In this document: positions 5,520 to 63,257 of the stretch, piece after piece
How the letters are laid out: every line of letters starts with the position of its first letter
How positions within the stretch are numbered: position 1 is the first letter of the stretch
Source of the DNA: Candidatus Woesearchaeota archaeon
GTDB taxonomy: Archaea; Nanobdellota; Nanobdellia; SCGC-AAA011-G17; UBA489
DNA: 64,000 bases
Direction: 5' to 3'
Assembly (NCBI GenBank): GCA_964622835.1
Contig: CAZUSA010000001.1
Coordinates: 50,831 to 114,830, forward strand
Position numbers and translations under genes: made by a program
The notes under the pieces: model-generated
Told to the model about the DNA's origin: nothing
What the model saw: only the letters and a program-made list of their open reading frames with translations
Database searches by the model: none

Positions 5520-6266
5520 TCATTGAAAACGTGATAACGCTTCTTCTTCCATAAAGTGTAATGCACCGGGAATAATGAAACATTGCGGATTTGTTTGTAA
5601 GGTAACAGCATTTGCAGCACCAACATGTATTTCTTGTTTTCCACTACCAAGACCACCACACACAATAACTTCTGTATCAGGTTTTAATCCACAACGAATG
5701 AAGTAATCTAATCCATCTCGTGCAGTCATGAAGGTAATAGTTCCATTGATATTTTTTAGATCTAATAATACTAACGTGTGCAAACCAATCTCTTTATTTT
5801 TAATCATAAAATCATAGGTACTCGTAACATCAGTGTTTTCTTCAGGAACAGTTACTGTTCTTCCAAATTTATACAAGCTTAATCCTGTACTACCCACTGT
5901 TGTTAAGATACTTGCATTGTCTATGACTGTTGTTTGCACATCATGTTTGTTCGCCCGCGTTAACAAATCAACGTGTGTCGTAGCACCTAATGGACTACCA
6001 ACAATAAGTAAAGCAATATTTTTGTTTTGTGCTGGTGTAATCAGTTCTTCATCAGCTTGTGTTTCTAAAAAGTCACGATCAACAGGAGTAATAGTAACCC
6101 CATATGCTTGTTCTAAAGCAGCATGATCATAGTCTACTAATTGACTGGTGTAGGCTTCTAAGTACACTTTATCACATTTCTTAAGGCAATTTAAGCCTTG
6201 TAGAGTAATGTCTTGGGGTGTCCCTAGTCCTATGCCGATGAGGTATAACATTCCAAAAGGCTTCAA
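5520..6266 (-). CDS. dph5: Diphthine synthase (class III SAM-dependent tetrapyrrole-type methylase)
   Basis: N-terminus MLYLIGIGLGTPQDITLQGL... matches the diphthine synthase/DphB family. Length 248 aa. Confidence 0.8.
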   Translation of the reverse strand: MKPFGMLYLIGIGLGTPQDITLQGLNCLKKCDKVYLEAYTSQLVDYDHAALEQAYGVTITPVDRDFLETQADEELITPAQNKNIALLIVGSPLGATTHVDLLTRANKHDVQTTVIDNASILTTVGSTGLSLYKFGRTVTVPEENTDVTSTYDFMIKNKEIGLHTLVLLDLKNINGTITFMTARDGLDYFIRCGLKPDTEVIVCGGLGSGKQEIHVGAANAVTLQTNPQCFIIPGALHFMEEEALSRFQ

Positions 6267-8719: not shown

Positions 8720-10792
8720 ATGTGTGGTATTATTGGTAGTTTGGAACGAAGCAATCATGAAAAAGAAGCTACAATAGCATTAGCTCGTATTGCGTATCGT
8801 GGTAAAGATGCGCAACAGACGAAGAGTACAACAACAAGTACGTTTGCTCATTGTTTACATGCTATTGTTGGTAATGCACCGCAACCCTTAGTGCATAATG
8901 AATGGATCTTTGGTGCTAATTGTGAAATTTATAATTGGAAGGAACTCAAAGAACAATACAATCTTGCAGGTGATAATGATGCTGAAATACTCTTTAGTTT
9001 GTTACAACTACAAGAAACCCTTACTGAAGATGCTCTTAATGCGTTGTTTAAAGAAATAGATGGTGTCTTTGCTTTTTTCTTGCATAATACTAAAGAAAAC
9101 TACACAATTCTTGCACGTGATAGTTTAGGCATAAAACCCTTATGGTTTGCTAATACAGATGGGTTACTCTTTGCATCGGAACGAAAGGCTATTGCTTCTG
9201 AAACGGTTGAACCTGAAGAGTTGAATCCACGTAAAATTATCAAGTATGATCATAGTACCAAAGAAGTAATGTTGTGGCATCAAACATTTTTTACGATCAC
9301 ACACAATCCATCATATAATAATACAGAAGGAAAGAAAGAACTCGAAACATTACTTACTACTGCAGTAACGAAAAGAATTCCTCAAAAGAAGTTGGGTATT
9401 TTATTTTCTGGTGGATTCGATTCAACAATGCTTGCATGGATGCTAACACAACAAAAGATTCCGTTTACTGCATATATGACGCTTGCTGAAGGCAAAGAGA
9501 ATGAACAAGAAAATGCTGAGCGTATTGCTAAAGAGTTAGATTTCCCGTTAACGATTATTCCTGTTACGGAAGAAAGATTAAAAGCAGCATTACCTACTAT
9601 TATTACAACGATTGAATCTGCTGATCCTATTAAGGTTGAAGTGGGTGCGGTTATGTATTTTGCATTAGAAGAAGCAAAGAAAGACAACATTAAGGTTATT
9701 TTTTCTGGTGTTGGTGCGGATGATTTGTTTATGGGCTATGGTCGTATGCATAATCATCAAAATGGTAGTTTAGATTCCTTATCGAGTTTAAGAAAACTCT
9801 ATGAGAAGGATTTGTATCGTGATGATGTTTTGACGATGGCACAGAGTATTGAATTACGTTTACCTTACTTGGATAAGACATTAGTTCAAGCGTGTTTGAA
9901 CATTCCAAACGAATACAAGACAGGCGAAGTTCCCAAGTCATTACTACGCACTATTGCAATAGAGATGGGAATGCCGGAATCATTAACAACGTTAAAACGT
10001 AATGCCGCTCAGTATAGTAGTGGTCTCGGTCGGTTAGCAAAGAAATTGGTAAAGAAGGAGTACAAAGGAACCTATTATGGTACCATCTTAGGAAGAGCAA
10101 ATAGTAAACTCGGTGTATTATTTTCTTCAGGAAAGGACAGTGTCTACGCCTTACACATCCAACAGCGGTTACAATATGAAACAGCATGTTTGATTACGAT
10201 GGATAGCCACAATAAGGATTCATTTATGTTTCATACGCCAGCGATTGAACGTGCGGAAATACAGGCTGAATCATTAGGTATTCCGTTAATTCTTGAAAAA
10301 ACGCAGGGTGAGGAAGAAAAGGAGCTTGCTGATTTAGAACGGGCAATGCAACGGGCGAAGGATGAGTATAAGATCCAAGGTATTGTTACAGGAGCAATCT
10401 TTTCTAATTATCAACGAACACGTATTGAAGAGTTGTGTGATCAATTAAATCTTAAATGCTATTCTCCGTTGTGGCACATGGATCAACATACTGAGTTAAA
10501 GAACTTACTGAAAGAAGGGTTTAAGATTGTTATGACGAAAGTTGCTGCAGATGGATTAGACAGTTCGTGGTTAAACAAAGTAATGACTGAAGAAACGATT
10601 ACACAGTTACAAGAAGTTGAAAAGAAAGTAGGTATCAATGTTGCTGGTGAGGGTGGAGAGTTTGAAACGTTTGTATTAGATGCTCCGTTATTCAATAATG
10701 TGTTAACGATTACGAAGTCTTCTATTGAGGAAGATACAGATGGTGCGGCAACATTAATCATTGAATCCTTGGAATCAAAAAAGAAAGATTAA
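8720..10792 (+). CDS. Fusion protein: class-II glutamine amidotransferase + asparagine-synthetase-like PP-loop domain + C-terminal Dph6-like diphthine-ammonia ligase domain
   Basis: MCGIIG N-terminal nucleophile with FASERKAI (AsnB GATase). LFSGGFDSTML (AsnB SGGxDS PP-loop). Second PP-loop VLFSSGKDSVYAL plus GEGGEFETFVLDAPLF, typical of the Dph6/MJ0570 ATP-binding family. Confidence 0.75.
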   Translation: MCGIIGSLERSNHEKEATIALARIAYRGKDAQQTKSTTTSTFAHCLHAIVGNAPQPLVHNEWIFGANCEIYNWKELKEQYNLAGDNDAEILFSLLQLQETLTEDALNALFKEIDGVFAFFLHNTKENYTILARDSLGIKPLWFANTDGLLFASERKAIASETVEPEELNPRKIIKYDHSTKEVMLWHQTFFTITHNPSYNNTEGKKELETLLTTAVTKRIPQKKLGILFSGGFDSTMLAWMLTQQKIPFTAYMTLAEGKENEQENAERIAKELDFPLTIIPVTEERLKAALPTIITTIESADPIKVEVGAVMYFALEEAKKDNIKVIFSGVGADDLFMGYGRMHNHQNGSLDSLSSLRKLYEKDLYRDDVLTMAQSIELRLPYLDKTLVQACLNIPNEYKTGEVPKSLLRTIAIEMGMPESLTTLKRNAAQYSSGLGRLAKKLVKKEYKGTYYGTILGRANSKLGVLFSSGKDSVYALHIQQRLQYETACLITMDSHNKDSFMFHTPAIERAEIQAESLGIPLILEKTQGEEEKELADLERAMQRAKDEYKIQGIVTGAIFSNYQRTRIEELCDQLNLKCYSPLWHMDQHTELKNLLKEGFKIVMTKVAADGLDSSWLNKVMTEETITQLQEVEKKVGINVAGEGGEFETFVLDAPLFNNVLTITKSSIEEDTDGAATLIIESLESKKKD

Positions 10793-10818
10793 TAATAGTT
10801 CTTCATACTACCACATAT

Positions 10819-10971
10819 ATGGTTATGATTATTAATGTTACGTGTACTAAATGTGGTAAAAGTCAAAATATGGAGATTAGAAATCCTCAGATGACTGCGT
10901 TTGATAAGCCTAATCTTAAAGGTAAACGTAAGAAATGCGTATGGTGTGAGAAGTCCTTTAAACTGTTATAA
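10819..10971 (+). CDS. Small zinc-ribbon protein (50 aa, CxxC...CxxC)
   Basis: ATG at 10819 to TAA at 10969-10971 encodes MVMIINVTCTKCGKSQNMEIRNPQMTAFDKPNLKGKRKKCVWCEKSFKLL. Below the 60-aa ORF-track cutoff. Confidence 0.4.
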   Translation: MVMIINVTCTKCGKSQNMEIRNPQMTAFDKPNLKGKRKKCVWCEKSFKLL

Positions 10972-11229
10972 TTAAGATTGTTCTATAACAACGGTTCCAG
11001 AAATTATTTTTGCTTGGCAACAAAGGCGTTGATTATCTTCAAGGTTCATGCCTTCTTCTGCTTCGTTTTTTGGTGAAAGGTTTTCCATACCGTCAACAAC
11101 AACTACTTTACACGTCCCACATCGACCATGTCGACAGCCAAAGCGTACACCCAATTGATCTGCTGCTGGTTGTATTGCGTCACCGTCAATAACATCTGCT
11201 GATGCATTTTCTTTTGTGAGTGTTGCCAT
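10972..11229 (-). CDS. 2Fe-2S ferredoxin (plant/adrenodoxin-like)
   Basis: CRHGRCGTCK (C-x4-C-x2-C) plus distal Cys in LCCQAKI. ORF track extends to 11295 but MATLTKEN (start 11229) is the more plausible start. Confidence 0.7.
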   Translation of the reverse strand: MATLTKENASADVIDGDAIQPAADQLGVRFGCRHGRCGTCKVVVVDGMENLSPKNEAEEGMNLEDNQRLCCQAKIISGTVVIEQS

Positions 11230-11312
11230 GTATTTTTGGGAGAAAAGAGCTTTATTAAGATTTGCTTTTACGTTTTCAATACGTTTATAAAACAACTATC
11301 TACCATAATGAA

Positions 11313-11618
11313 ATGCCTGCGTATAAACAGAAGTGTTATTTGTGTAAAGAGAACTGGGCGATTGTTCGGTATTCTCGACAAAAGTTTGTTGTTTGTAAAG
11401 AGTGTGAGATGAAGTCTGTTAAGACTGCAGTGAAAGATCCGACGATGAAAAAGATGTTTGCTCTTCCTCTTGATTGGTATGAAGAAAATGATTTCTTACG
11501 AAGTATTCGATATTCCTATGGCAAATGGGGTTCGCTAACAGAAAAGCAATTAGCAGCATTTAAGAAAACAGTTAAAGAATTGAAAGAAGAAACGAAAAAG
11601 AAGAAAGATTCAAAATAA
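11313..11618 (+). CDS. Small Cys4 zinc-finger protein, hypothetical
   Basis: CYLCKEN...CKECE motif. Likely start MPAYKQK at 11313 inside the longer ORF 11262..11618. Lys-rich C-tail. Confidence 0.45.
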   Translation: MPAYKQKCYLCKENWAIVRYSRQKFVVCKECEMKSVKTAVKDPTMKKMFALPLDWYEENDFLRSIRYSYGKWGSLTEKQLAAFKKTVKELKEETKKKKDSK

Positions 11619-11619
11619 G

Positions 11620-11700
11620 CGCCGCGACCCGGATTTGAACCGGGACGCCCGAAGGCCTGGATTAGCAATCCAGTGCAATACCAGATTATGCGATCGCGGC
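11620..11700 (-). tRNA. tRNA-Ser (anticodon GCU), class II with long variable arm, no encoded CCA
   Basis: Reverse complement folds as acceptor GCCGCGA/TCGCGGC, anticodon loop TTGCTAA, variable arm GCCTTCGGGCGT, T-arm CCCGG-TTCAAAT-CCGGG. 81 nt. Confidence 0.8.
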
Positions 11701-11733: not shown

Positions 11734-12219
11734 CTAACTAAAATCAGCCATGGTGGGATTGACGACAGATAGCCAGTTTTTTGTATTCAATATCATGCTC
11801 ACGGTTTTTTCTCCTGCGTTGAAATCTATGGTTTCATTTGCTAATAAAGAGTTATCTACGTAGACTGGAATATCGAAGAGGTTACCAAAGGGAGGAACAC
11901 TGCCAGGTAAACAATCGGTTAATCGTACAACATCTTCTTCTGTTGCAAAGGTTACTGGCCCACCAAGGAGTGCTTTTGCTTTCTTAAAGTCTATGCGTTT
12001 TGCTGCTGAGATAATCAGTTGATAGGGTTTGTGATGAACCATAACAATCATGGCTTTCGCTCCTCGTTTCAAAATGTCTTCTGCTTTGATACCAAATAAT
12101 CGTTCTCGTACGGCTGCCGCTTCTTCAGACGTTCGCACGGGTTCATGATCAAAGACTTGATATTTAATATTATTTGTATCAAGAAGTTTCTTTATTTGGT
12201 GAAAGGTTGTATTGCTCAT
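11734..12219 (-). CDS. YbaK/ProX-family aminoacyl-tRNA deacylase (trans-editing protein)
   Basis: MSNTTFHQIKKLLDTNNIKYQVFDHEPVRTSEE... has the YbaK/ProX fold signature. The ORF-track N-terminal 30 aa are read-through across the adjacent tRNA gene; the true start ATG is at 12219. Confidence 0.7.
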   Translation of the reverse strand: MSNTTFHQIKKLLDTNNIKYQVFDHEPVRTSEEAAAVRERLFGIKAEDILKRGAKAMIVMVHHKPYQLIISAAKRIDFKKAKALLGGPVTFATEEDVVRLTDCLPGSVPPFGNLFDIPVYVDNSLLANETIDFNAGEKTVSMILNTKNWLSVVNPTMADFS

Positions 12220-12226
12220 AGTAAAG

Positions 12227-12307
12227 CGCCGCGGGCAGGATTTGAACCTACATGCCCGAAGGCCCGGTTTTCGAGACCGGTGCGATACCAGATTACGCGA
12301 CCGCGGC
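12227..12307 (-). tRNA. tRNA-Ser (anticodon CGA), class II, no encoded CCA
   Basis: Reverse complement: acceptor GCCGCGG/CCGCGGC, anticodon loop CTCGAAA, variable arm GCCTTCGGGC, T-loop TTCAAAT. 81 nt. About 80% identical to the GCU isoacceptor. Confidence 0.8.
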
Positions 12308-12397
12308 ATAGAAAGACCTTTTTAAACCACCTTTATCAATCTAACTATCGGAACATTTATAAAGAATAACCAAGTCATAAGGAGACAAATTCACTAC

Positions 12398-13267
12398 ATG
12401 ATGGTGACAACTAATATGGCTATACAACCCACAGGCAGAACAATAGAAGACGCCTTAAGAAATCTACCAGGCGGAAGAAAAAGAATAGGAGAGATAGTAA
12501 GAGGTATCCAAAATGGTGATCCCACAGCAGTACAAGAATTATACGCAGGATTGTACATTGATGCACAAACAGGTATTGGTAATAGACGTGCATTTGATGA
12601 AAAAATTGGAGAATTAGATAGTCATTCAATTGTTATTTCAGGAGATGTTTTAGGTCTCAAAGCAGCAAACGATAGCCCTGGCGGAACAGCTGCAGGAGAT
12701 CAGTTAATTAGTAGCACAGCAGAAGGTTTACAAGGAAGTCTGCGATTTGCTTCAAATTCTTATGAAGGACCTGATAAACGAACAAGTAAACAAACAGATT
12801 ATTTACAATGGATTGCAGATGATGGTCAAGCCTACAGAGTAGGTGGTGATGAATTTGCAGCAATTCTCCCAGACGTTTTACATCTTGCAATAGGTGGGAC
12901 AATTTTAGAAAGAACACAAAACCGATTTAACAATCCAAATAAACCCCTCAATGCAATTGCACTAAGCGGTGCAGCATATGCCCCAGGAATGGATCCCGAA
13001 GCAGTAAGAGCATTATCTGAAGACGGCATGTATGCAATGAAATATGGGTTATACAATGAAGATCCTAATAAGAGAAGGGATCGCACTGATGCACGTGGCA
13101 TCTTATCTGGTTTCGCATTAGCACACCCTGGTGGAAGATTTCAGTTATTTTTCCCAAAAGGACCAGATGGAGAAAAAAGAGTAGGATCCGCACGAACGCT
13201 TGAAGAAGGATTATTCCACATAACGTTCCCTGATGGACGTACTGAAGAATATCAGCGTAAAGAGTGA
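12398..13267 (+). CDS. Stand-alone GGDEF-domain protein (putative diguanylate cyclase), no sensor domain
   Basis: DAQTGIGNRRAFDEKI (D-x-LTGL-x-NRR-x-F), ISGDVLGLKAANDSPGGTAAGDQLI (substrate/metal-binding region), RVGGDEFAAIL (GGDEF), SEDGMYAMKYG (AD-x-ALY-x-AK region). No RxxD I-site. Confidence 0.7.
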   Translation: MMVTTNMAIQPTGRTIEDALRNLPGGRKRIGEIVRGIQNGDPTAVQELYAGLYIDAQTGIGNRRAFDEKIGELDSHSIVISGDVLGLKAANDSPGGTAAGDQLISSTAEGLQGSLRFASNSYEGPDKRTSKQTDYLQWIADDGQAYRVGGDEFAAILPDVLHLAIGGTILERTQNRFNNPNKPLNAIALSGAAYAPGMDPEAVRALSEDGMYAMKYGLYNEDPNKRRDRTDARGILSGFALAHPGGRFQLFFPKGPDGEKRVGSARTLEEGLFHITFPDGRTEEYQRKE

Positions 13268-13306: not shown

Positions 13307-14989
13307 TTGGTGGTTAAACTAACAGAAAAACGATTAATTACAGCAGCATTACCCTATGTGAACAACATCCCCCATTTGGGACACATCGTAGGCTCACATT
13401 TACCTGCTGATATTTTTGCCAGATATTGTAGAAGTAAAGGATACGATACATTATTTATTGGTGGTACTGATGAAAATGGTACACCTGCATTATTAGCGGC
13501 TGAAGAACATAATATCCCGTTACCTAAATTTCTTGATACGATTTATGAAGTCCATAAGAAAATTTATGAATGGTTTAATATTTCGTATGATAATTTTTCT
13601 CGTACATCTAAAAAAATTCATGCCGAAACAACACAAGCATTTTTCAAAACGGTAGAAAAAAACGGCTTTGTTACGCAAGGTAGTGTCAAACAGTTTTATG
13701 ATGAAGAAAAAGAATTATTTTTAGCTGATCGGTATGTTACTGGAACCTGTGGCTATTGTAACTATGAACATGCTCGCGGTGACCAATGTGAAGAATGTGG
13801 CAACGTATTAGATACGACTACATTAAAGAATCCTGTATCAACAATCTCAAAGAAGACGCCTATTATCAAAGAATCTAATCATTTATTTTTAGATTATCCT
13901 AAACTTTCACCAAAACTACAAACATGGATTGAATCACAAACACATTGGCGTCATCAAGTACGTAATCTCGCATTAGGATGGTTAAAGGAAGGATTGAAAG
14001 AACGAAGTATTACGCGTGATCTCAAGAGTGGTATTCCCGTGCCGTTAGAAGGATTTGAGGATAAAGTATTTTATGTGTGGTTTGATGCGCCTATTGGGTA
14101 TATTTCTTCAACGAAAGAACATACACCAAAGTGGAAAGACTACTGGCAAAATAAAGACTCTCAAATCTATCATTTTGTTGGCAAGGATAACATTCCGTTC
14201 CATAGTATTTTTTGGCCTGCTTCATTAATAGCTCAAGGAGAATATAATTTACCGTATAATGTGGTTGGCTTACAATACCTTACCTTTGAAGGTGGTAAGT
14301 TTTCTAAAACCCATAAACGTGGTGTCTTTTGCGAACACTTAGAAAAGGCTAAGATTCCTGTAGATATTTTACGTGCGTATTTAACGTTTTTAATTCCTGA
14401 ATCTGATGATACAGAGTTTAAGTGGGATGAATTAGGTACGCGTGTCAATGCTGATATTATTGGGAATGTTGGTAATTTTATTAATCGAACATTAACCTAT
14501 GCAGCAAACAAGTGTGAGAGCACTATTCTTCAACCAACAAAACTAAACGAAGCTGATACAACCTTTGTTGCAGCAGTAAAGAAACAAGTTGATGTTATTG
14601 AGCAAGCATTTGAAGCTGTTGAATTACGTCAAGCATTACGTGAAGTCCTAAAACTTTCCGATATTGGTAATAAATATTTTAATGATCAACAACCGTGGGT
14701 TGTTATTAAAGAAGATAAACAACGTGCTCAGGAAATTGTGTATCAATGTAGTAATGTGTGTAAAACCTTAGCTATTGTTATAGCCCCTTTCCTTCCTGAA
14801 ACGGCAGAAAAAATTAACAAACAATTGAATATTACAACAGCGTGTACGTGGGAAGAACTTCAAAATCCACTACCAAAAAAGCATACGATCGGTACGCCAA
14901 AGGTCTTATTTGAAAAAATTACGCCTGAACATATTGAACAGTGGAAGAAAATAACTGCTGAAACGTCACCCGTGTCATCCTTTTTCTAA
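13307..14989 (+). CDS. metG: Methionyl-tRNA synthetase
   Basis: Class I HIGH motif (PYVNNIPHLGHIVGS), KMSKS-like KFSKTHKRG, four-Cys knuckle CGYCNYEH...CEECG. TTG/GTG start. Confidence 0.9.
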   Translation: MVVKLTEKRLITAALPYVNNIPHLGHIVGSHLPADIFARYCRSKGYDTLFIGGTDENGTPALLAAEEHNIPLPKFLDTIYEVHKKIYEWFNISYDNFSRTSKKIHAETTQAFFKTVEKNGFVTQGSVKQFYDEEKELFLADRYVTGTCGYCNYEHARGDQCEECGNVLDTTTLKNPVSTISKKTPIIKESNHLFLDYPKLSPKLQTWIESQTHWRHQVRNLALGWLKEGLKERSITRDLKSGIPVPLEGFEDKVFYVWFDAPIGYISSTKEHTPKWKDYWQNKDSQIYHFVGKDNIPFHSIFWPASLIAQGEYNLPYNVVGLQYLTFEGGKFSKTHKRGVFCEHLEKAKIPVDILRAYLTFLIPESDDTEFKWDELGTRVNADIIGNVGNFINRTLTYAANKCESTILQPTKLNEADTTFVAAVKKQVDVIEQAFEAVELRQALREVLKLSDIGNKYFNDQQPWVVIKEDKQRAQEIVYQCSNVCKTLAIVIAPFLPETAEKINKQLNITTACTWEELQNPLPKKHTIGTPKVLFEKITPEHIEQWKKITAETSPVSSFF

Positions 14990-15032: not shown

Positions 15033-15107
15033 AGCGAGGTAGAACAGTTAGGAGTGTTCGTTGGGCTCATAACCCAAAGGTCGGAGGTTCAAATCCTCCC
15101 CTCGCTA
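15033..15107 (+). tRNA. Initiator tRNA-Met (anticodon CAU)
   Basis: Acceptor AGCGAGG/CCTCGCT (A1:U72), anticodon loop CTCATAA, three consecutive G:C pairs in the anticodon stem (TTGGG/CCCAA), T-arm GGAGG-TTCAAAT-CCTCC. 75 nt, no CCA. Confidence 0.8.
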
Positions 15108-16069: not shown

Positions 16070-16717
16070 ATGAAACTCTGTGGTTTAGATGAAGCAGGTC
16101 GCGGACCTATTATCGGGCCGTTAGTGGTTGCAGGCGTAGCTGTGGACGAATCAATGATACCCCAATTAAAAGAAATAGGTGTTAAAGATTCTAAGATGCT
16201 CACAAAGATCCAACGTGAGTCTATGTTTGAACAAATTAAAGCTATTAGCCATTATCATATTCTTATTGTTGAACCTGAGGAAATTGATGCTGCATTAAAC
16301 CATCCTGAACTGAATTTAAATTGGTTAGAGGGATTAAAGATGGCTGAAATCATTAATGAGTTAGAGCCAGAAAAGGCTATTATTGATGCGCCAAGTAATA
16401 ATATTCCTGCGTTTACTGAATTTTTAAAGAAACAAATAACAAACAAAGATATTCAATTAACATTAGAACATAAGGCTGATGAAAAGTATGAAGTCTGTTC
16501 TGCTGCTTCTATTTTAGCAAAGGTCACAAGAGATAGAGAAATTGAAAGGATTAAAGACAAAGTAGGTGATTGTGGTTCAGGATATCCAAGTGATCCTAAA
16601 ACAAAAGAATTTGTTGAAAAGGAATGGAATAATCATAAAGAAATTTTTAGAACAACATGGGCGACGTACAAACGGTTTGCTAATGAAAAAAAACAGAAGA
16701 GTTTAGCTGACTATTGA
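16070..16717 (+). CDS. rnhB: Ribonuclease HII
   Basis: MKLCGLDEAGRGPIIGPLVVAGV N-terminus (DEAGRG catalytic motif). Confidence 0.85.
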   Translation: MKLCGLDEAGRGPIIGPLVVAGVAVDESMIPQLKEIGVKDSKMLTKIQRESMFEQIKAISHYHILIVEPEEIDAALNHPELNLNWLEGLKMAEIINELEPEKAIIDAPSNNIPAFTEFLKKQITNKDIQLTLEHKADEKYEVCSAASILAKVTRDREIERIKDKVGDCGSGYPSDPKTKEFVEKEWNNHKEIFRTTWATYKRFANEKKQKSLADY

Positions 16718-17622
16718 AGAATTTCATCCATTGCTGTCTGCATTTCATCAACCAATGTTGTTAAATGTTGAGAATCTCCATGAAGTAAAGATACATCCGA
16801 ACGTGCGCGTTCCATAAATAGTTGCAAGTATCTTTGTGAGCTATCTAGACCAACCATATCCACAATACCTTTTTTCCCAACATCCTGACCCCTTGGTTTA
16901 CCTAATGTTGTTGATGAACAACCACGGTCATAACAATCATCCATTGTTTGATACGCACGCCCAAGATATTTCCCAAAAGAGGTAAGTAACAATAAATCAT
17001 CCTCCAAACATTCCATTGGTGCTGCAGCAAGGGCACCCACAGTTGCAGCAAGAGATAAGAGAACTCCTGTTTTCCCATCATAAAGTGTAAGAACTTCTTC
17101 AAGGTTTGTTGGTTGACATTGTTTACTTAAGTCACGTTCTTGACCATTGATAAGAATGGGTATGGCTTCAGCAACTTCAGCCCCAATTCGTGTCCTTCTC
17201 ATCGCAGAGATTTTATCACAGTGAGCAACAATAATCTGGGCCTGTGCCGTAAGATAATGTGAAGCAAAAGTTGCAATGACAGTATTATATCGTTTCCAGC
17301 AGCTATCTCTGCCATGTCGTTGAAGAGCATTATCATTGTCAGGACGATCATCAATGATTAACGAGGATGCATGCAAAAGCTCGGTTGCAACAGCAGTAGC
17401 GAGTGCGCGTTCAACTTGGAAGTCTGTATTAGTATAAACACGTGCAGTTTCCAAAGTAATAAGAGGTCTCCATAAATGCCCTGGTGGAAGGACAGCATAG
17501 TGTGCTGCATCAATAGTTTGGGGAGTAAATCTATCAGGTGACTCCAAAGTATCCTCAAACATATCGGCCATAAAACGAGTTATTTGTTTACGAAGATCGG
17601 CAGTAGTATAGGTACAAGGCAT
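16711..17622 (-). CDS. Polyprenyl (geranylgeranyl) diphosphate synthase
   Basis: First Asp-rich motif LIIDDRPDND...RHG and second QTMDDCYD (DDxxD), in a trans-isoprenyl diphosphate synthase-like alpha fold. Confidence 0.65.
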   Translation of the reverse strand: MPCTYTTADLRKQITRFMADMFEDTLESPDRFTPQTIDAAHYAVLPPGHLWRPLITLETARVYTNTDFQVERALATAVATELLHASSLIIDDRPDNDNALQRHGRDSCWKRYNTVIATFASHYLTAQAQIIVAHCDKISAMRRTRIGAEVAEAIPILINGQERDLSKQCQPTNLEEVLTLYDGKTGVLLSLAATVGALAAAPMECLEDDLLLLTSFGKYLGRAYQTMDDCYDRGCSSTTLGKPRGQDVGKKGIVDMVGLDSSQRYLQLFMERARSDVSLLHGDSQHLTTLVDEMQTAMDEILQ

Positions 17623-24891: not shown

Positions 24892-26064
24892 TTAGATTCG
24901 CCGTTTATGGAAATGAAGGAACCATAAAATATTAACAATGATAAGTATACCTAGGATAGTAAGAATACGTGTTGTTTCTTTTGCTGTTTGTGGGGGTTGG
25001 TTAACGGTTGCACGAAATTGTTTGTTATTAACGGTCATTGCTGCTGTTCGTTCAAAGGATTTACTATCATATTGTAATAAAATATTAGCTGTATATGTTC
25101 CTTCTTTCAATGATGTGGTATCCCAATAAGAGAGTAATGTTCCTTTTTTACGTGCCCCAAGTGTAATAGATGGTGTTTGTATAACGGAAACAACAGTTCC
25201 TTGACTATCTGAAAAGGTTATGTGCGCTTGAACTGAAGAAAATTGTTCGTTCCATAAACTTTGTACAGGAATGGTTAACGCAACAGTTTCGCCTAGTGTA
25301 AAATCCTTAACAACAAGATCTTTAATTGTTATTTTTGGTTTACCTACAGTAAAGGATGTTTCTGTTGATGCAGTAGTTTCATCTGTTGTGACTGTTGCTT
25401 GTGCCGTATACACACCTGGTGCTGCTGCTTCTGGCCAAGTAAACCGTGCTTTACCCATTGTTTTAGGAGGAATAGTATGAAGTGTTTCTGTAAAATCAGT
25501 AAGGATAGTGTTTGCATCATCAACAAGTGTAAGATGCACAACAGGATTATGTAATGATTCACTACCGCTGTTGTATATAGGAACAACAAATAATACATTT
25601 TCTCGTGTGTCTCCTTCATGGACTGAAATAGTTATTGTTGCATGTTCTCCCGGATAGGGTACAGTAATACGTAAAGATGTTATGATGTTTATAGTGGTAA
25701 GAACACTTTTCCCCTGTGCTAATGGTGAGAGTTCTTGTTGCACAGAAAAAGTAATATCATGATCACCTGGTTCTAAAACACCATGAGGGATGCTTACAGC
25801 ATATTTTACAGGTGTTTCAGAAAATCCTTCTGATGTTGTAAAATCCGTAACGGGTAAAGAAACATATGATGCAAGCGGTCCTGTTGCTGTTACAGAAAAG
25901 GATTGGGATCCATCAGGAATACGCACAGTAAATGATGATTGGTGTGTAAAAGGCACAGTGTAGTCTACTAATTCTCGTGCAGGAATAACAGTAAATGCGT
26001 GAACACTTGTTACAAGAAGTAAGAGTAAACAACAAAATAAAAATATTCGTTTATTATTATTCAC
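24892..26064 (-). CDS. Cell-surface protein, beta-sandwich repeats, signal peptide + C-terminal TM anchor
   Basis: Signal IFLFCCLLLLLVTSVHA; C-terminal ILTILGILIIVNILWFLHF plus KRRI. Directly abuts the giant gene (stop/start 26064/26065). Confidence 0.5.
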   Translation of the reverse strand: MNNNKRIFLFCCLLLLLVTSVHAFTVIPARELVDYTVPFTHQSSFTVRIPDGSQSFSVTATGPLASYVSLPVTDFTTSEGFSETPVKYAVSIPHGVLEPGDHDITFSVQQELSPLAQGKSVLTTINIITSLRITVPYPGEHATITISVHEGDTRENVLFVVPIYNSGSESLHNPVVHLTLVDDANTILTDFTETLHTIPPKTMGKARFTWPEAAAPGVYTAQATVTTDETTASTETSFTVGKPKITIKDLVVKDFTLGETVALTIPVQSLWNEQFSSVQAHITFSDSQGTVVSVIQTPSITLGARKKGTLLSYWDTTSLKEGTYTANILLQYDSKSFERTAAMTVNNKQFRATVNQPPQTAKETTRILTILGILIIVNILWFLHFHKRRI

Positions 26065-29000
26065 TTAGGTGACCCCCGGATACCAAATGGTTATATTTAA
26101 TGTTATATTTTTATCACCTTCAGGTTCTCCTGTAGGCACAGTAACGTTAACATGAATGGTTGCTTCATCATTACCTTCCATGTATTCAAAGCGTTCAATG
26201 ACAATGAGTTGTGCATCTTCTGCAGGCAATGCTGTATATACTAATAACGAATTGTCTTCATCATACGCATCATTGCTTTCTGTACCATTAGCAACTTTAA
26301 AGCTAAAGTAAGCAAGATCTGTTGCACTGACTGAATCCCATAATCCCGTTGCACCACCAGTAAAGTTAAGGGTGACACGTGCATTCCCTGTATTTTCTAA
26401 GTATAAAGGACATGCTCCTGGTCCGGAACCACCTATAGTACATGCTTCTGTTGTGTTAAATTGACTTTCGAGTACACGTCCAAAAGCAACGGTGTTATTT
26501 AACAATGTTATTCCTGCTTCAACAAGGAAGTTTACAATGGTTCTATTGACGGTGCTTTGACCATAGTGGACGGAAGCATTTTCATAGGGATCACCTGCTT
26601 GAACAAACCATTCATAGTGGTAGTTGTCATCACTAAAGTAGACAGATTCATTTTCAAAGGTGTATGTACAGTTGTCTTCAAGATCAAAAATGCCATTACT
26701 ATTTGTGTCACAGTTGGTTATGTTTTCTCGTACTTGGAAGGCAAAGTGTTTGTCACACGACCCACCAGAATCATTGACACAAGTCATATTCAAGTAATAG
26801 GTCACATTATCTCCATCAACATCCGAGTGGTTGCCATCACAGAAGAAGACACCACACCCTGCATCTTCTGGTGGTAATTGTCCATATGTATTATCTGGTT
26901 TCCAAATAAACGTGAAGTTAACAGTATCTGTATCATTGATAGGATAGGTTAATGTAGGATAGTGGGGTATATAATTTTCAATAGTTGTATTGACAGATTC
27001 GTTTGCTAGTGATGCTGTACTTGCATTGTCTAAGACAGTAACATTACAACTCCAATTATCAAAGTGTGCTGTATTAAACGATGGTAGTATATCACTTCCA
27101 ACAAGTGATGCTCCTGTTGCTGCTGTGACCGTTGTTGTTGTTTGTACTTCATCTTCTTTACGGAAGGTTACATGAGCGGTTACTTCAGCGTCAAGATCGT
27201 CAATGACAACAAAGCTACAGTTAAGGTCTGCTGTAGTATTTGTTAAATTTGCTGCTGTTGGTGAAATAGTAATATTTGTAACAACAGGTTGTCGATCTAC
27301 TCTAAAGAGGAATGTTCCATTGACATCACTATTGTTAGCACTGTCAGTTACATTAACATTCCAGTAATACGTTCCTGATCGTAGTCGATAACTATCATTG
27401 ATGTCATCTGCAGTAAAGCTCCTATTGTAGATAGCAACTTCATCAATGTATCCTTGCCATCCTTGAACAAAATTGTTAGTAGGGTCACGTGAGTTCCCCA
27501 CAATCAAAGCATTACCTGTACCAATGGTTGAAAGAGTGCCTTCTTGTTCTAAGTTTCCATTTTTGTATATTGCAACACCCCCTGTAGTATTAACAACAAC
27601 ACCAATATGAACCCATTCTCCCGCCGTAAAAAAGCTTGAAACAGTTATGATTTCTGCATTGCCATAAATTTCAAGCGCAGCACTATTTTTCTTAAGAGCA
27701 AACCCAACATTAGTTGCACCATTATGTGTTGCAAGCAGACCTTCAGAACCACTTGTATCATCAGGATTCACCCACATAAGATAGGTAAAGTTATCTTTAC
27801 CTATTAAGGCAGCATTTCCTGTTCCAAAATCAACATATTCATCATCAGTCCCCTCGCCCTTGTAAGCACCTGCAAGTTTTCCTTCATTTTTAACAACTTT
27901 TGCAGAACCAAGAACAGTACCATTTTTAGATCCATTGGCAAAGTTGTAAGCATTCGTTGCGTTACTGAAGTCACTATTTTCATCAAAGTGTGCTAACAGT
28001 CTTGTTACATCATCTTCAAGATCGAGTAACGGTGCAGTGATGTTATAGGCTGATTGTGAATTGTTTGGCACACTTGTGTTGTAAAAGACTAAGTCATCGG
28101 TTGCAATTGCTGTACTTACTGTTCCATTGGTAGCATATATGCGTACTTCAAGGCCATCACCTTCAGGATCCACAACAGATGCATTAAGCAGTATTGGTCC
28201 AACTTCTGTAAAGTTAGAATTATTTACTGGTTCTATAAGTTCTGTTACTTGCGGTCCATTACCACCAATAAGGAATTCCCAGGTAGGTGTATTGTTAAAA
28301 TTATCACTTCCTGCAGCAGCTGAATCATTTGCTTCTGCAAACCAGTAGTGTTGTCCATTATCTAAGTCGAGATAATTAACTATTTCTGCTTCTGTTAGTG
28401 ATCGATTAATAACATATACTTCATCCATGCCCCCTCCCCACCAGTTTCCTCCTTCACGTTCAAGTTTTCCAATGACAAAGTCTTCTTGTGAACTAGCATC
28501 AGTAATATCCGAATAGGTGTTCACTTCTTGAAAGACACCATTTCTGTACAAACGAAGGGTTTTATTATCATATTGAACAAGAGCCAGATGAACCCATTCT
28601 CCTACGGTAAAGAAATCTGCTGTATTGAGGGTTGCAACATTCCCATCTGTTCCTACAGCAAGTGCTGCAGCATTTCGATAGATAACAAGACCGACAGTAA
28701 AACTATTTGACCAACCTCCCATAACAACCCCTTGACCAGCAGCTACAGAATTAGTGCGAACCCATGCCATGTATGTTGCATTTCGTGTTTTGTAACATTC
28801 AAAGTCGCAATCATCAACTAAAATAAATTCATTATTACCATTTAATTCAACATTCCCCCCAAGGATTGCATTACTGAAATTAATAGTTACTAACGATTCA
28901 TTGATTGTTCCATTATAATTTTCCGCCCAGTCTTTAATACGACTAAGATTTTCTCCATGATCTTCTCGCATATCAAAGTGGTATCCAAAGATCATATCAC

Positions 29001-32000
29001 TATCCACATCAAACGGATAGTATGTCCAATTGTAGTAGATGGTACTGCCATTAGTTACATTACCTTTGTAGAGAAGGTCATCTTCTCCCGGAACGCCTGT
29101 ACGGTTACCAAATATAGTTACAGTTACATTATCACGCGGATTTGTATCATCAGTAACGTTTACTTCTAAGGTAACATTTGTTGTACCTACGGCAAAGACA
29201 GTGAGATTAACAGGTGTTTGGAGATCGATATTTGGTACTGAATTTAATGTTGCTGCTGAGGTTGGCCATTCTACAACTTCAACTCTGTATGTTCGTGTTT
29301 GTCCAGTATCGCTAACCATAATTTGATATTCTGATGTTGTTACCAACATAAGGCCTATGGTGTATCTTAGGAAAGAGGTACCTGTTCCTGTTGAATAACT
29401 TGACCCAAAAATAGAAGAAACAGTAAGATCATCGAGTGTTTTTCCAATGGAAGCATTAAGATATATTGGTTCTGTTCCGCCACTTTGTGTTCCTGATGAC
29501 CGGGTAACAATTGCAGGCGTCCCATCTGTTTGTGTATTTTCAATGATATAGGCGACAGCTGTTGTTGTGGCGGCAATAGCTGAACCACCATCCACCAAAA
29601 AGGTTAAGGTATTATCAGCAGAAAAATAAACTACATGTCCTTGCTGATTAATATTATCTTGGATATTACCCATACTTTTTTGTACATGAATAAATGTTTT
29701 AGCCAAATCATTACCTAAACCTGTAGTTTCATTTTCATGCACACCTGCAGTAGTATACCCGTGTTGTACACGTTCTACATCCCAGTTATCACCTGTAAAT
29801 TCAACCACTGCGAAACTAAGTCTATTCGCATCACTGCCATGTTCACCCCGAGTAAATCTTGTGACATTTAATTGGGATGTAAATTCGTTTGTTATAAATG
29901 CATGAGTGTTATAGTCTGTTCTACCTGTGTCCCTATTTCCTTGTCCTGTAATGAACGGTACGATTTGTGAGTGATTTACATAGTTACTAATATCAGCAGT
30001 ATCCACGAACATGGTTGTTGATCCAAAGTCCAGGGTGTTTCTTGCTCTCACTATTATTTCATTATCTCCACCAATAGGTCCTATATATTCTATAATTTCC
30101 CAGTTAACATAGGCACTTGTAGCTGCTCCAAATCGCGAGAAAGTTACGTTTTCTGTGAGGTTGTTTGCGCCATCATGAAAAATATAAACAGCCACATCAT
30201 CAGCATTTGCCAGACCTCCAGTAATATTATCTCCTGAACTTACATGGTTGGTATTGGTTATTCTAATAAAGGCGTAGGAATTATTTGCAGGTGCATCATA
30301 GTCTGTGCCTGCATGAAGGGTGTGGTTAGTAACCCCTGTAATAGAAAAATCTCCTCGTTGTATTTTGAAGTCTGTTGCTGAGTTGTATGCATAAGCAGTA
30401 TTACTGCCAAAGTCAAATTTGAGTGTGTGTTTTCCTGGTTGGAGTACTTGACTTACTTCTTGTGATTCTGCACCACATTGGTAATTTTCAATCACAACAC
30501 TGCCATCTATCCATTCGTATTCTTTAACATTATCACCACAAATAATTTGTAAGAATTTGAGTTGTTCTGTCGTCCCATAGGGTAACCATGTTGTTCCATC
30601 TACAGCTGTTATATGGAGATCTGCTTGTCCTGTTGTTTGGAATTTAACAACCCAGTTCCCACTGACTTTAGGATATGATTGTACAGTAATGATCGTTAAG
30701 CCTACGTGGAATGTTTTGTTAACTTCTGGTGAAAGTGATGTTGTCCATGTTATGGTGTCAATACGGCCATTACCATTGGTATCTAATGGCGTGTAGGGGT
30801 ATGATTGTGCTGTACCATTTTCATCAACACCATAGGTGAGACTAATATCTTCTGGTAAGAGTTCTGGTACGCCTGTGCTTACAAGGACTGCATCAAAGGA
30901 CTCTGGTGTTGTAACCATGATTTCTTTCCCATAAGAATCGGGTATTTCTTGTGTTGTTGGCCCAGGTAAGTCATAAGATACAAAAGCTTCTGTAACTTCA
31001 TTTTCAATGATGATTGTTTGTTCTGTTCCTTCAGGTAATGGTATATCTTCAACGGGTTCTTCTGTTCCATTAAGAGTTGTATTGGTTTCATTAAGCAAAT
31101 CAACACCAAGAGGTTCTCCAGTAAGTGTATCAACAGCAAGTCCTGTAATGGAACTATCTGTAAGGGCAGCTACTGCTTGTTCAATAAAAGATTGTTCTTC
31201 AACAACAAGGGTATCAAGACGACGATAGCGATTATCTGCAAGAAGTTGTTTTGCTTGTGTTGATTGTTTTTCTTCATATAATATACTGGTGACATTAATG
31301 TTTGTTGCTTCTGGCGGTAATATAACAACAGCATCTGTTGTTGGTATATCAAAGGTAACATGGTTTGTCCATCGTACAGGTTTGTTTGTTTCAACGATGT
31401 CATATGTTACACTACTGTTCGCAGTACCCTTTGTTATGTTACGTTCAACAACACCTTCAATAAACGTATCATCAACGGTAAGTAACAGTGATTGATCATG
31501 GAGGTCAATAAGTGATAAACCATAGTTTAGTTCGGGATGACTTGTTGTTTCAACAGTTACTTGTTCTAATGAAAGGATGGCATCTTTAACGTAGACTTTG
31601 AGGGTAAAGTCTGTTCCAAGCGTATCACGAAGGTTACATGCATCTCCACAGAGTGATGTAAATGATGCAATGCTCATATTGGTAATATTTTGTGTTGTCA
31701 TAAAATCAATGAGTGGATCATACGGCACGTCTTCTACAACAGCTTCTTCTTTTATGACTTCAATTATTTCTTCAAGTGGTTCTTCTGGATCAAAGATACC
31801 TTCTGCAAATGCCATGACAGAACTCGTAATATTTTGTGTGTAATTAACCGTACCATTGAGTGCTGCTGTATAGGCCCATTGGCCAAGACAAATACCCACT
31901 TCAATATCCCAGAATGTACAGCGGTAGAGATAGTCACTTTGTGTAGGTGCTGTAAAGGTTAATGAGGTATTTGTACTATTGTATGCACTAATATCAAATC

Positions 32001-34631: not shown

Positions 34632-35951
34632 TTATTTTGGGTAGTATTGGTAGTAGGTTTGACCTTCTAAGGTTGATGTTTCTTCATCGTCAGTGCTGTT
34701 TATTTTTCTAAACGCAATGATTAATGCCAAAACTACTAAGACAATTACTAAGATGCCGAAGATTACAGCAAGGACAGTTTTTAGACCTTCACTTGTTGAT
34801 GCTTCTTCTGCTTCACCAGTAACGCGTGTGGTAAATGTTAGTTCTTGAAGAACGTCTGTTCCTACCATGACACGTGCGACCCATGTGTGTGTTCCTGTTG
34901 ATTCTCCGTCAAATGGTGTAACGGAAATAGTTACTTCGCCTGTTGCGTCAGGTGTAATACTCAAGAAACTTGGTTGTACACTTGCTTCGCCCCATGCGGA
35001 AACGCCATCAACTTGAACAGAGTAAACGCCGATATCTTCGCCAAGGTTTGCGAGCATAACGTTGTAGTTAGCTGTTGCGCCTGGTGCGACAGATTTGGAG
35101 TTTGAGTCACTGTTTACAATCGTTTGCACTGCATTTGATGTTTCAGTTCCTTGAACATTTACGTTAAGGGATTGACTCAGGAAGCTGTATCCACGATTGT
35201 ATTCAACGTCAACACGTACTTCGTAGGTTCCTGTAGCTGCGTCGCTTGGGATCCGTAAGAGTAAGTCTATTTGTTGACTGTTGTCATTTTTAATATGATC
35301 TTCAGCATCTTCCTGTACTTCAGTATTTAGCTCATCAATGAAATTGACGGTGCTGATACCTAAGTCGGGAATAGATACGGTTACTTTGACGTCGTTTTCT
35401 TCTTTGTCACCAAGGTTTTCTAGACGTACAGTTGCAAATAAAGAGTTACCTGCTGCTATAGTGCTACTTGGGTTAAGAAGGACATCAAAGATGCTTAGAC
35501 CGTGACGTTGTTCATCAATATGAAGGGTTATTTCTTCGGTGAGTTCAGTATTTTTGTCTGAAAGCTCAATACGAAGTGTATAATCTTCTGATGCGTCAAT
35601 ATCTTCTGGAATAGTTAACGATAATGTTTTCTTGTATGTTTTACCAGCAACAATATCGAATTGTGAAGTTGTGTCGAATATACTTCCGTATTCGTATCCG
35701 TTGATACGTGCGGAAAGTACAACATCATCTGCACCTGTAGTATCTGCTACAATACGTGCTTCAATGGTGATTGTTTCACCACGTTGTACATCGAGTACAG
35801 TAATACCATCATCTACAATAAGATCATCGATCTCAATGCTGGCAAATTCTAGGTCACTTGCAGCAGCCTGTACTGGTACAGCCATGCTTAAAGCGCCGAA
35901 AAGTGCCACTAAGACGAATAATACTGCGTGTATTTGTCTTGTGTTATTCAT
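34632..35951 (-). CDS. S-layer-like surface protein (signal peptide, beta-sandwich repeats, C-terminal TM anchor)
   Basis: Signal HAVLFVLVALFGALSMAVPVQAAAS; C-terminal LKTVLAVIFGILVIVLVVLALIIAFRK. Confidence 0.5.
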   Translation of the reverse strand: MNNTRQIHAVLFVLVALFGALSMAVPVQAAASDLEFASIEIDDLIVDDGITVLDVQRGETITIEARIVADTTGADDVVLSARINGYEYGSIFDTTSQFDIVAGKTYKKTLSLTIPEDIDASEDYTLRIELSDKNTELTEEITLHIDEQRHGLSIFDVLLNPSSTIAAGNSLFATVRLENLGDKEENDVKVTVSIPDLGISTVNFIDELNTEVQEDAEDHIKNDNSQQIDLLLRIPSDAATGTYEVRVDVEYNRGYSFLSQSLNVNVQGTETSNAVQTIVNSDSNSKSVAPGATANYNVMLANLGEDIGVYSVQVDGVSAWGEASVQPSFLSITPDATGEVTISVTPFDGESTGTHTWVARVMVGTDVLQELTFTTRVTGEAEEASTSEGLKTVLAVIFGILVIVLVVLALIIAFRKINSTDDEETSTLEGQTYYQYYPK

Positions 35952-37732: not shown

Positions 37733-38119
37733 CTATTCTTCTTTGGCACTAAACGTAGAAGCAATATCAATGACGTATTTCCCATCATCTAACTTATACA
37801 CCAAGGGCTCACCTTTAAACAAGTCAACTAAATCAATCTCAAATTTCCCTGGTTGATTCACCCGTATTGATTCAAGATCTAAGACAACTGGATGATCTTT
37901 CGCTACTTCCTTTTTGGTCTTATCACCAATAAGTTCTAAAGCATCACGTTCTATTTGTTGTTTATCTTCTGTTGTTAAGTTCGCCGTAAAGGATTGAGAT
38001 TCTTGTACGGATTGTTCTTTCATAAAGAAGAAAAATCGTCCACCACAATCACATCCTGCCAATATTTCACGTGAACCATCAGCATACAACTTTGAACAAC
38101 GAACACATTGGTGTGGCAT
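37733..38119 (-). CDS. Zn-ribbon protein (DUF2072-like), archaeal conserved
   Basis: MPHQCVRCSKLYADGSREILAGCDCGG (C-x2-C...C-x-C). Confidence 0.5.
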   Translation of the reverse strand: MPHQCVRCSKLYADGSREILAGCDCGGRFFFFMKEQSVQESQSFTANLTTEDKQQIERDALELIGDKTKKEVAKDHPVVLDLESIRVNQPGKFEIDLVDLFKGEPLVYKLDDGKYVIDIASTFSAKEE

Positions 38120-38581
38120 CTATCGACGTCTCCGCACCGTGCGACGTTTCGGTGTTCGTTTTGTTGCAGCACGCTTGACTCGTTTCTTTGGTGCAGCACG
38201 TTTCGTTGAACCAAATTGTGGTAACGTAAACAATTCTACTTTATTTGGATTACGTCGTATTTCTTTCACAACACTTGATGGTCCAATAATCGTTATGCCA
38301 TCCCTATGCCCAATTAATGCTTTTACCATTTCTTTCTTGAATTTATTAAAAAATTGCAAGTTCTTTTCTTCTGGATAGATAGTACAAATTTCCACACCAG
38401 TAAAACTTTTTTGAATCTGAGCCATCGTCTCAGCAATTAATAGGGTTTCTTCTTCGGGTAATAACCGTCCTTGCATTAATACAATCTTTTCTTGTTTAAC
38501 AATACCGAGTAACTTATCAATGCGTTCGTTCGAAGCAAGATTTTCAATCTCACTGTAGGGGACAAATTCTAGAGTTAACAT
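38120..38581 (-). CDS. DUF2073-like archaeal protein with Arg/Lys-rich C-terminal tail
   Basis: Adjacent (0-nt gap) to the Zn-ribbon gene. C-terminal KRAAPKKRVKRAATKRTPKRRTVRRRR. Confidence 0.45.
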   Translation of the reverse strand: MLTLEFVPYSEIENLASNERIDKLLGIVKQEKIVLMQGRLLPEEETLLIAETMAQIQKSFTGVEICTIYPEEKNLQFFNKFKKEMVKALIGHRDGITIIGPSSVVKEIRRNPNKVELFTLPQFGSTKRAAPKKRVKRAATKRTPKRRTVRRRR

Positions 38582-44076: not shown

Positions 44077-44268
44077 AGTATGTTCCTCCAAGAAGAGATG
44101 AGGCATATTCACCCCAAAAGTGTATCTTCCATGTTGAATGAGGAGTATATTAACATTTCGTTGATAAAAGCCATACGTCTAAAGTCTTTTAAACGCCTAT
44201 AGAAAGATATTCTCTGTCCAGTTGTGTGACCCTTGCGAGAAGCCTTCGGGCGTCGAAGAACAAGGGAG

Positions 44269-63222: not shown

Positions 63223-63257
63223 AGAATAATACACAAAAAAGGTCTTTAAAAAGGTTG

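Follow-up and report, generated by a model that had tools for sequence, protein, structure and literature searches.

A window of 64,000 nucleotides (64 kb) of contig CAZUSA010000001.1, the whole stretch of DNA analyzed here, carries a stand-alone GGDEF gene directly upstream of a methionyl-tRNA synthetase (MetRS) gene on the same strand. The host is a marine Woesearchaeota (DPANN) archaeon. The GGDEF gene occupies a conserved position among divergent Woesearchaeota genomes and encodes a protein with an intact GG(D/E)EF motif. It is interpreted here, with moderate confidence and on sequence evidence, as a genuine, long-resident archaeal gene for an active diguanylate cyclase, the synthase of cyclic dimeric guanosine monophosphate (c-di-GMP).

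Signaling through c-di-GMP is generally considered a hallmark of bacteria. A census published in 2018 found only one archaeal GGDEF domain, in Methanocella, and raised contamination as a possible source of other bacterial-type signaling matches in archaeal drafts (PMC5847659). A 2021 paper reported >300 unverified BLAST hits, many of them in Asgard and DPANN archaea (PMC8646023), and a 2022 review stated that archaeal GGDEF proteins "need to be confirmed in archaeal contigs" (PMC10086821). The domain call itself is not new: relatives of the window protein are already labeled GGDEF or diguanylate cyclase in GenBank. What is added here, for one lineage, is evidence that the GGDEF gene truly belongs to an archaeon and keeps a conserved position. 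This confirmation rests on reproducible assembly, conserved position, native composition, promoter-like signals, and an intact active site. A subfamily in which an insert replaces the inhibitory site (I-site) is now defined, offering a target for structural work, and the small soluble protein of 289 aa is a concrete candidate for testing archaeal c-di-GMP synthesis.

The gene is a complete open reading frame (ORF), and the GGDEF blocks quoted in an initial annotation of the window were all found in its translation (Table 1). As that annotation stated, the protein has no sensor or receiver domain (PF00990 is the single Pfam-A family matched) and no transmembrane segment (maximum Kyte-Doolittle mean over 19 residues, 1.46). 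Upstream of the ATG lie a TATA-box-like and a Shine-Dalgarno-like element, both similar to those of other window genes; TTTATA-type boxes are found at −26 to −50 before many of these. The downstream MetRS gene has its own TTTATAA promoter-like box at −28. MetRS is genomic context of the GGDEF gene, not a demonstrated functional partner.

The GGDEF assignment was upheld by profile search, in which PF00990 matched in two stretches (E 1.6e-8, 34.9 bits against a gathering cut-off of 23.8). A monomer model of the protein was built with AlphaFold2 (AF2) from a 109-sequence alignment, with a predicted local distance difference test score (pLDDT) of 80.5 and a predicted template modeling score (pTM) of 0.81. 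The protein shows the five-stranded sheet, flanking helices, and GG(D/E)EF hairpin of the GGDEF fold. Foldseek against PDB returned diguanylate cyclases only, the best being the coiled coil and GGDEF domain of DgcB (6ttr, E 6.6e-9). A single-sequence phmmer search of PDB gave one marginal match (3icl, E 0.16), so a family profile was needed; this matched 47 solved GGDEF chains (best E 6e-20). The structural match to Cas10/mCpol and to the GTP cyclohydrolase III MJ0145 was much weaker than to GGDEF cyclases. Pfam and PADLOC gave no match to Cas10/mCpol or GTP cyclohydrolase III (PF05165), PADLOC gave no defense-system match, and no CRISPR or effector genes were found near the GGDEF gene in the window ORFs scanned. 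Taken on its sequence, the GGDEF domain is judged real but divergent.

The core of the domain is interrupted by an insert and flanked by helices on the N-terminal side and strands on the C-terminal side. The N-terminal helices are predicted to serve dimerization, from their resemblance in the model to the DgcB coiled coil. The first half of the core holds the D55/T58 hinge, the D83 metal site, K88, N91/D92, D101, and R116. In the C-terminal region, strands are predicted at residues 238-243, 247-252, 261-269, 272-276, and 282-286. A family motif, G[YF]A..P...[FI].[IL]..P, aligns across the members and corresponds to the first hairpin, GFALAHPGGRFQLFFPK (residues 238-254); the last three strands are peculiar to the window protein.

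Table 1. Features of the GGDEF locus, in window coordinates or in residues of the GGDEF protein
Feature	Position	Strand	Basis or remark
Stand-alone GGDEF gene	12398..13267	+	Complete ORF, ATG start, 289 aa, stop included
TTTATAAA, archaeal TATA-box-like	12356..12363	+	42 nt 5' of ATG; putative promoter element
AAGGAG, Shine-Dalgarno-like	12379..12384	+	13 nt 5' of ATG; putative function
N-terminal helical region (residues 16-53), probable stalk/coiled coil into DxxTG hinge	12443..12556	+	AF2 helices 16-21, 26-38, 42-53
GGDEF core, first half (residues 54-116)	12557..12745	+	pLDDT 90-94; aligned to solved cyclases
Family-specific insert (residues 117-143), alpha2-beta2 loop	12746..12826	+	AF2 model and alignments
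GGDEF core, second half (residues 144-220)	12827..13057	+	R147, G149-G150-D151-E152-F153, K215; alignment and AF2
C-terminal beta region (residues 238-286)	13109..13255	+	AF2 strands
DAQTGIGNRRAF	residues 55-66		Translation of GGDEF ORF
GDVLGLKAANDSPGGTAAGDQLI	residues 82-104		Translation of GGDEF ORF
RVGGDEFAAIL	residues 147-157		Translation of GGDEF ORF
EDGMYAMK	residues 208-215		Translation of GGDEF ORF
Methionyl-tRNA synthetase	13307..14989	+	Pfam; conserved downstream same-strand neighbor of GGDEF gene
tRNA-Ser(gct)	11619-11700		Upstream of GGDEF gene
tRNA-Ser(cga)	12226-12307	-	Upstream of GGDEF gene

Active-site conservation was read from an alignment of 14 family proteins, the other members being only 22-28% identical to the window protein. 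Invariant positions are D55, T58, D83, G86, K88, N91, D92, G95, G100, D101, L111, R116, D134, R147, G149-F153, L157, R172, M211, and K215. They include the whole GG(D/E)EF motif (G149-G150-D151-E152-F153). D83 and K88 of the DxDxFKxxND block align with solved cyclases and presumably correspond to PleD D327 and K332. The guanine-specifying Asn and Asp positions, N91 and D101, are taken to be PleD N335 and D344. In the AKxxGRN block, whose Lys and Arg contacts we take to be PleD K442 and R446, K215 is invariant and GRN is absent. The metal, base-reading, and GGDEF residues are unchanged throughout the family.

The insert is charged, about 27-30 residues long, and of low confidence in the model, where residues 119-129 have pLDDT below 50 and residues 130-142 form a helix. 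In a model of the relative P0157 (pLDDT 85), the equivalent insert (residues 112-137) is wholly of low confidence, the C-terminal hairpin is confident, and the N-terminal stalk is longer (helices 4-17 and 23-44). Because solved cyclases in four alignments match the family profile in two pieces, skipping positions ~117-147, and the Arg of the RSSD I-site in DosC aligns with family R116, immediately ahead of the insert, the insert occupies the I-site loop. Cyclases of the I-site class carry RxxD five residues upstream of GGDEF. The annotated lack of an inhibitory site holds here: RxxD is absent four to seven residues before R147, where the sequence is IADDGQAYRVGGDEF, and the IADDGQAY that precedes R147 differs from the RxxD of product-inhibited cyclases. 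Classical product (feedback) inhibition is predicted to be absent, because the RxxD loop holds the charged insert instead.

The protein was compared with bacterial stalk and GGDEF cyclases, namely Caulobacter DgcB (6ttr), WspR (3bre), TpbB/YfiN (7a7e), PleD (1w25), and DgcZ (3tvk). It shares with them the GGDEF motif, the metal-binding Asp, the guanine-reading Asn and Asp, and the catalytic Lys, and, as in coiled-coil-regulated cyclases, an N-terminal helix runs into the DxLT hinge. Unlike them, it lacks a sensor or receiver domain, has the charged insert of ~27-30 residues instead of an RxxD I-site, extends the last helix and follows it with a C-terminal beta-hairpin, and replaces the Arg aligned with PleD R446. 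Its host is archaeal, and sequence identity to the bacterial enzymes is only 18-25%.

The gene sits in a housekeeping context, and its surroundings are archaeal, as initially annotated: the window encodes TrmB, OapB/OapC, archease, an intein-bearing RtcB, enzymes of diphthamide synthesis, and an initiator-type tRNA. The last is tRNA-Met 15033-15107, which has A1:U72 and a GGG/CCC anticodon stem. The proposed dph5 is consistent with a TP_methylase-fold gene at 5520-6266, and the archease gene and the intein-bearing RtcB gene are both present. Window neighbors are 58-70% identical to genes of metagenome-assembled genomes named Candidatus Woesearchaeota archaeon by NCBI, and the same name is given in GenBank for two relatives' proteins called "GGDEF domain-containing protein" or "diguanylate cyclase".

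A GGDEF gene could also have reached this setting through bacterial contamination, through an assembly chimera, or by horizontal insertion next to the tRNA-Ser genes in the very recent past. GGDEF domains are overwhelmingly bacterial, contamination has been raised for archaeal matches (PMC5847659, PMC10086821), the gene adjoins tRNA genes, and its Arg usage is AGA-rich relative to the window pool (Fisher p = 0.0009). However, the window DNA recurs in a contig of the JGI assembly 3300009481 (99.93% identity over 15.1 kb) and in the Logan assembly of a different run, SRR5211068 (100% over 2.8 kb). The GGDEF gene and its downstream junction with MetRS are intact in both of these assemblies, at 99.9-100% identity, and the upstream junction is also present in the independent JGI assembly. 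In the only close pair, the GGDEF genes differ by one nucleotide; other pairs are saturated.

Divergent Woesearchaeota genomes also hold a homolog at the same position. In GCA_016845225.1 and several TARA contigs, a stand-alone GGDEF gene is followed by MetRS and Dus; RNase HII, polyprenyl synthase, and SMC come next in the TARA contigs. GCA_018655015.1 keeps the same order except that MetRS is missing, so that Dus directly follows the GGDEF gene. GGDEF-MetRS adjacency was seen at five loci (L091, L092, L093, L094, and L095). Because near-identical DNA occurs in other assemblies and relatives share the position, contamination and chimerism are excluded for practical purposes; the chimeric contig considered initially is contradicted by reassembly of the same junctions elsewhere and by ordinary tetranucleotide composition. 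No close bacterial homolog was found among 1.84 billion representative proteins (best match outside the protein's own cluster, 31% identity, E 3.5e-12). Contamination, chimerism, or very recent insertion is thereby largely refuted and barely credible.

The two sides of the gene differ in conservation. The annotated tRNA-Ser/ybaK/tRNA-Ser block does adjoin the gene, with two tRNA-Ser genes and a YbaK-type tRNA_edit gene upstream, but it is not conserved in relatives, where the conserved side is the downstream one with MetRS and Dus. Pfam searches of uncharacterized neighbors in relatives (ORFs of loci L091, L093, and L097) gave no domains and hence no conserved partner. Because the upstream neighbors differ in every lineage, the upstream junction seems prone to rearrangement. 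In several relatives, free-standing LAGLIDADG homing-endonuclease genes occur upstream of the GGDEF gene at loci L005-L009 and, at L091, between MetRS and Dus (10641-11399). In the window, the mechanical YbaK-type ORF (11734-12309, minus strand) extends into the tRNA-Ser(cga) gene; its real start is probably an internal Met giving 161-162 aa, as called at L001. The tRNA-Ser genes that flank ybaK are 79% identical, and each is followed by a similar 17-nt CTTTA..ATCTAACTA element.

Adjacency to MetRS, the initiator tRNA, and Dus might instead indicate a palm-fold nucleotidyltransferase with a role in tRNA metabolism or translation. GGDEF and MetRS genes lie on the same strand, 39-49 nt apart, in four lineages, and tRNA genes, YbaK, and Dus are nearby. 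Yet the whole block, including Dus, RNase HII, polyprenyl synthase, and SMC, is syntenic, and the adjacency may reflect relatedness alone. MetRS also has a TATA-like box of its own, one lineage lacks MetRS at the site and another has wholly different neighbors, and the active site is of the GTP-GTP cyclase type. Such a role is very improbable.

Base composition was compared across the window. The codon counts behind the annotated bias were reproduced: AGA accounts for 12 of 22 Arg codons, and the fraction of A-ending codons (0.479) ranks second of 55 genes. Neighboring aminoacyl-tRNA synthetase genes prefer CGT as described, with 10 of 17 Arg codons in MetRS and the same preference in the threonyl-tRNA synthetase gene. 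The proposal that this bias hints at horizontal acquisition did not survive the whole-window comparison. Codon deviation, calculated as chi-square per codon for each of 55 genes against the rest of the window, ranks the GGDEF gene only 34th of 55, and codon bias was rejected as a sign of transfer. AGA is also the top Arg codon in three other resident window genes. GC content at third codon positions (GC3) is 0.203, under the window mean; the gene owes its higher GC to codon positions 1-2 (0.509), a reflection of amino-acid composition. Tetranucleotide distance is ordinary, with 28-32% of equal-sized windows at least as deviant.

The gene is not bracketed by direct repeats; the tRNA-Ser gene pair is the one long repeat detected in its vicinity. 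A phage collection gave weak partial matches only (32-35% identity, to Pseudomonas phage GGDEF genes) and no sign of viral origin. The synteny, codon, tetranucleotide, repeat, and phage comparisons thus show no sign of recent transfer. Because composition is ordinary, bracketing repeats and close phage homologs are lacking, promoter-like elements are present, and the position is syntenic, the gene is a long-term resident of the Woesearchaeota clade. Any transfer from bacteria is older than the split of the Woesearchaeota lineages, since several of them share the conserved syntenic position.

Relatives were sought by an exhaustive phmmer scan of the 1.84 billion representatives, which gave 421 matches at E <=1e-3; outside the window protein's own cluster, only P0008 is better than 1e-10. 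The best single-stretch matches, P0008, P0010, P0013, and P0018, are short stand-alone proteins that have an N-terminal helical segment, a pre-GGDEF insert, and the C-terminal motif in common with the window protein. Family members are four of the nine best matches outside its own cluster, the top one included. A profile of the best single-stretch matches retrieved 11 clusters at E <=1e-54, among them the window protein's own, P0001, after which scores drop to 1e-25 with ordinary bacterial GGDEFs. The window protein shows the features that define the family: position upstream of MetRS/Dus, the alpha2-beta2 loop insert, and the C-terminal G[YF]A..P hairpin. A leave-one-out family hidden Markov model (HMM) aligned it in one continuous stretch, residues 42-254, including insert and hairpin (81 bits). 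In P0009, a protein of 2587 aa, eight separate stretches match the window protein, and it is apparently a multi-GGDEF-like repeat protein.

The Woesearchaeota entries MBT3865689.1, MBT6045011.1, MBT3262317.1, and their relatives share the stalk, the insert, the GGDEF domain, and the C-terminal G[YF]A..P..I/L..P hairpin, and likewise lie upstream of MetRS/Dus/RNase HII/polyprenyl synthase/SMC. Unlike them, the window protein has GG for GH, a shorter N-terminus, and an extra three-strand C-terminal extension; identity to them is 22-28%, and tree support for including it is weak. It is the most divergent member of the Woesearchaeota stand-alone GGDEF family. Small-genome bacteria also have short stand-alone GGDEFs of 210-260 aa, examples being Candidatus Curtissbacteria OGD95151.1, P0030, and P0089. 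P0030 and P0089 have an insert in the same loop and a housekeeping context; P0089 adjoins an hrcA-grpE-dnaK-dnaJ operon. Unlike the Woesearchaeota family, the bacterial proteins show no clear counterpart of the C-terminal hairpin motif, and identity is 27-40% over partial lengths. A profile search of genome contigs with the family alignment returned generic bacterial GGDEF genes and no family member among the matches listed. Identity at this level is too low to name a donor lineage.

Positional counterparts of the GGDEF protein are 25-30% identical, compared with 58-70% between relatives for the flanking Dus, RNase HII, SMC, MetRS, and Dph6-fusion proteins. The sixth neighbor compared, polyprenyl synthase (16711-17622, minus strand), is 30-36% identical and the only other fast-evolving gene of the block. 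The GGDEF gene evolves much faster than its surroundings while its active site is kept. Most probably, the stand-alone type was acquired once, long ago, from bacteria and then diverged fast.

As a diguanylate cyclase, the protein would act as a dimer, with residue roles presumably those of their homologs in published PleD and WspR structures. Two copies would pair through the N-terminal helical stalk, each GGDEF domain binding one GTP. N91 and D101 would read the guanine, D83 and D151 would hold Mg2+, and E152 and K215 would support catalysis, with R147 preceding the hairpin. The dimer would then condense two GTP into c-di-GMP. Because there is no I-site and no sensor domain, the enzyme would probably be controlled through how strongly it is expressed or by partners binding to the insert or to the C-terminal beta-hairpin.

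Several observations weigh against this assignment or against a simple archaeal history for the gene. The stricter NCBIfam model TIGR00254 scores 23 bits, below its cut-off of 37.4, which marks the protein as divergent; splitting of the domain by the insert lowers this score. In the ND..GH..GD block, GH has become GG with a one-residue insertion. The residue aligned with PleD R446, four after K215, is Tyr219 here and Lys or His in relatives, and R446 is presumably a phosphate contact. On the leave-one-out HMM, several bacterial GGDEFs outscore the window protein (90-98 against 81 bits). In a small neighbor-joining tree of 25 sequences and 214 columns, a clade of the 13 other family members has 99% bootstrap; the window protein joins this clade weakly (43%) and pairs at 81% with bacterial P0030. 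The latter is a 253-aa stand-alone GGDEF encoded beside the bacterial ribosomal proteins bL10 and bL12, with a same-sized insert and the TDY...GYR-GGDE block in common with the window protein. A second transfer replacing the gene at the same locus is possible. A complete signaling circuit is also not visible in the 64-kb window, which is a fraction of the genome. A scan of 55 window ORFs, comprising every non-overlapping ORF of 100 aa or longer and one of 50 aa, gave no PilZ, EAL, or HD-GYP domain, as annotated, and Rfam showed no c-di-GMP riboswitch within the window.

The TIGR00254 score, the substituted GH and R446-equivalent positions, and the high sequence divergence would also suit a catalytically dead GGDEF scaffold or nucleotide receptor resembling FimX, LapD, or PelD. 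In receptor GGDEFs of the degenerate type, RxxD is usually kept and the GGDEF motif or the metal ligands are lost. Here the pattern is reversed, with the catalytic residues invariant and RxxD absent, and a dead domain is improbable. Of the two outcomes initially considered, an active cyclase is favored over a degenerate fold, the metal, base, and GGDEF residues being family-invariant and no I-site being available for a receptor role.

An active GGDEF-fold enzyme might also have another product or role, such as a different cyclic or linear dinucleotide, for instance cyclic GMP-AMP (cGAMP) or pppGpG, GTP binding or hydrolysis, or a molecule directed at bacterial or archaeal partner cells of a probable symbiont. 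The window holds no known c-di-GMP receptor or phosphodiesterase, the insert replaces the I-site loop, and the R446-equivalent residue is not Arg. Identity of 25-30% against 58-70% for five of the six neighbors is a pattern typical at organism-organism interfaces. Hypr enzymes, whose GGDEF domains make cGAMP, were reportedly described by Hallberg and colleagues in 2016 as carrying Ser at the base-specifying position. The Asp at this position, D101, is invariant in the family, N91 is invariant as well, the full GGDEF motif is intact, and the closest structures are all c-di-GMP synthases. Other GGDEF domains hydrolyze ATP, as in GdpP/YybT (cited in PMC8646023). On balance a different product or role is unlikely, though it keeps appreciable weight, and c-di-GMP synthesis is preferred.

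If c-di-GMP is the product, marine Woesearchaeota may run a lineage-inherited pathway based on it, or on a related dinucleotide, with an insert-for-I-site cyclase and a novel kind of receptor; this extension is put forward tentatively, as somewhat doubtful. The receptors could be archaeal proteins or targets in partner cells, the latter conceivable because of the very fast evolution in a probable symbiont. With such a pathway, Archaea would gain their first functional c-di-GMP system. Demonstration of c-di-GMP synthesis and of a receptor would make the finding considerably more significant; an inactive or never-expressed protein would reduce it to an annotated domain homolog.

Other genes of the window were recorded. 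The Dph6-fusion gene (8720-10792, plus strand) encodes a 690-aa glutamine amidotransferase/asparagine-synthase module fused with a Dph6-type diphthamide synthase domain, and the fusion also occurs in the Woesearchaeota relatives L001, L004, and L091. OapC and OapB genes are adjacent at 37733-38581 (minus strand), and a replication origin may lie close to them. At 39453-42847 (minus strand), the archease gene overlaps the end of the RtcB gene, whose intein has ~500 residues. Two giant ORFs lie on the minus strand: 26065-32910 encodes 2281 aa with two Laminin_G_3/ConA-like lectin domains, and 59185-63270 encodes 1361 aa with no Pfam match. Both are candidates for surface or adhesion proteins in a cell that lives attached to a host. 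The genes at 24892-26064 and 34632-35951 have weak matches to immunoglobulin-like or host-binding domains. Genes for 2-oxoacid dehydrogenase E1 alpha, E1 beta, and E2 and for lipoate-protein ligase lie at 44885-49139 (minus strand). This cluster adjoins Fe/Mn superoxide dismutase and peroxiredoxin genes at 42908-44112, suggesting a lifestyle with exposure to oxygen, which is unusual for DPANN archaea with reduced genomes.

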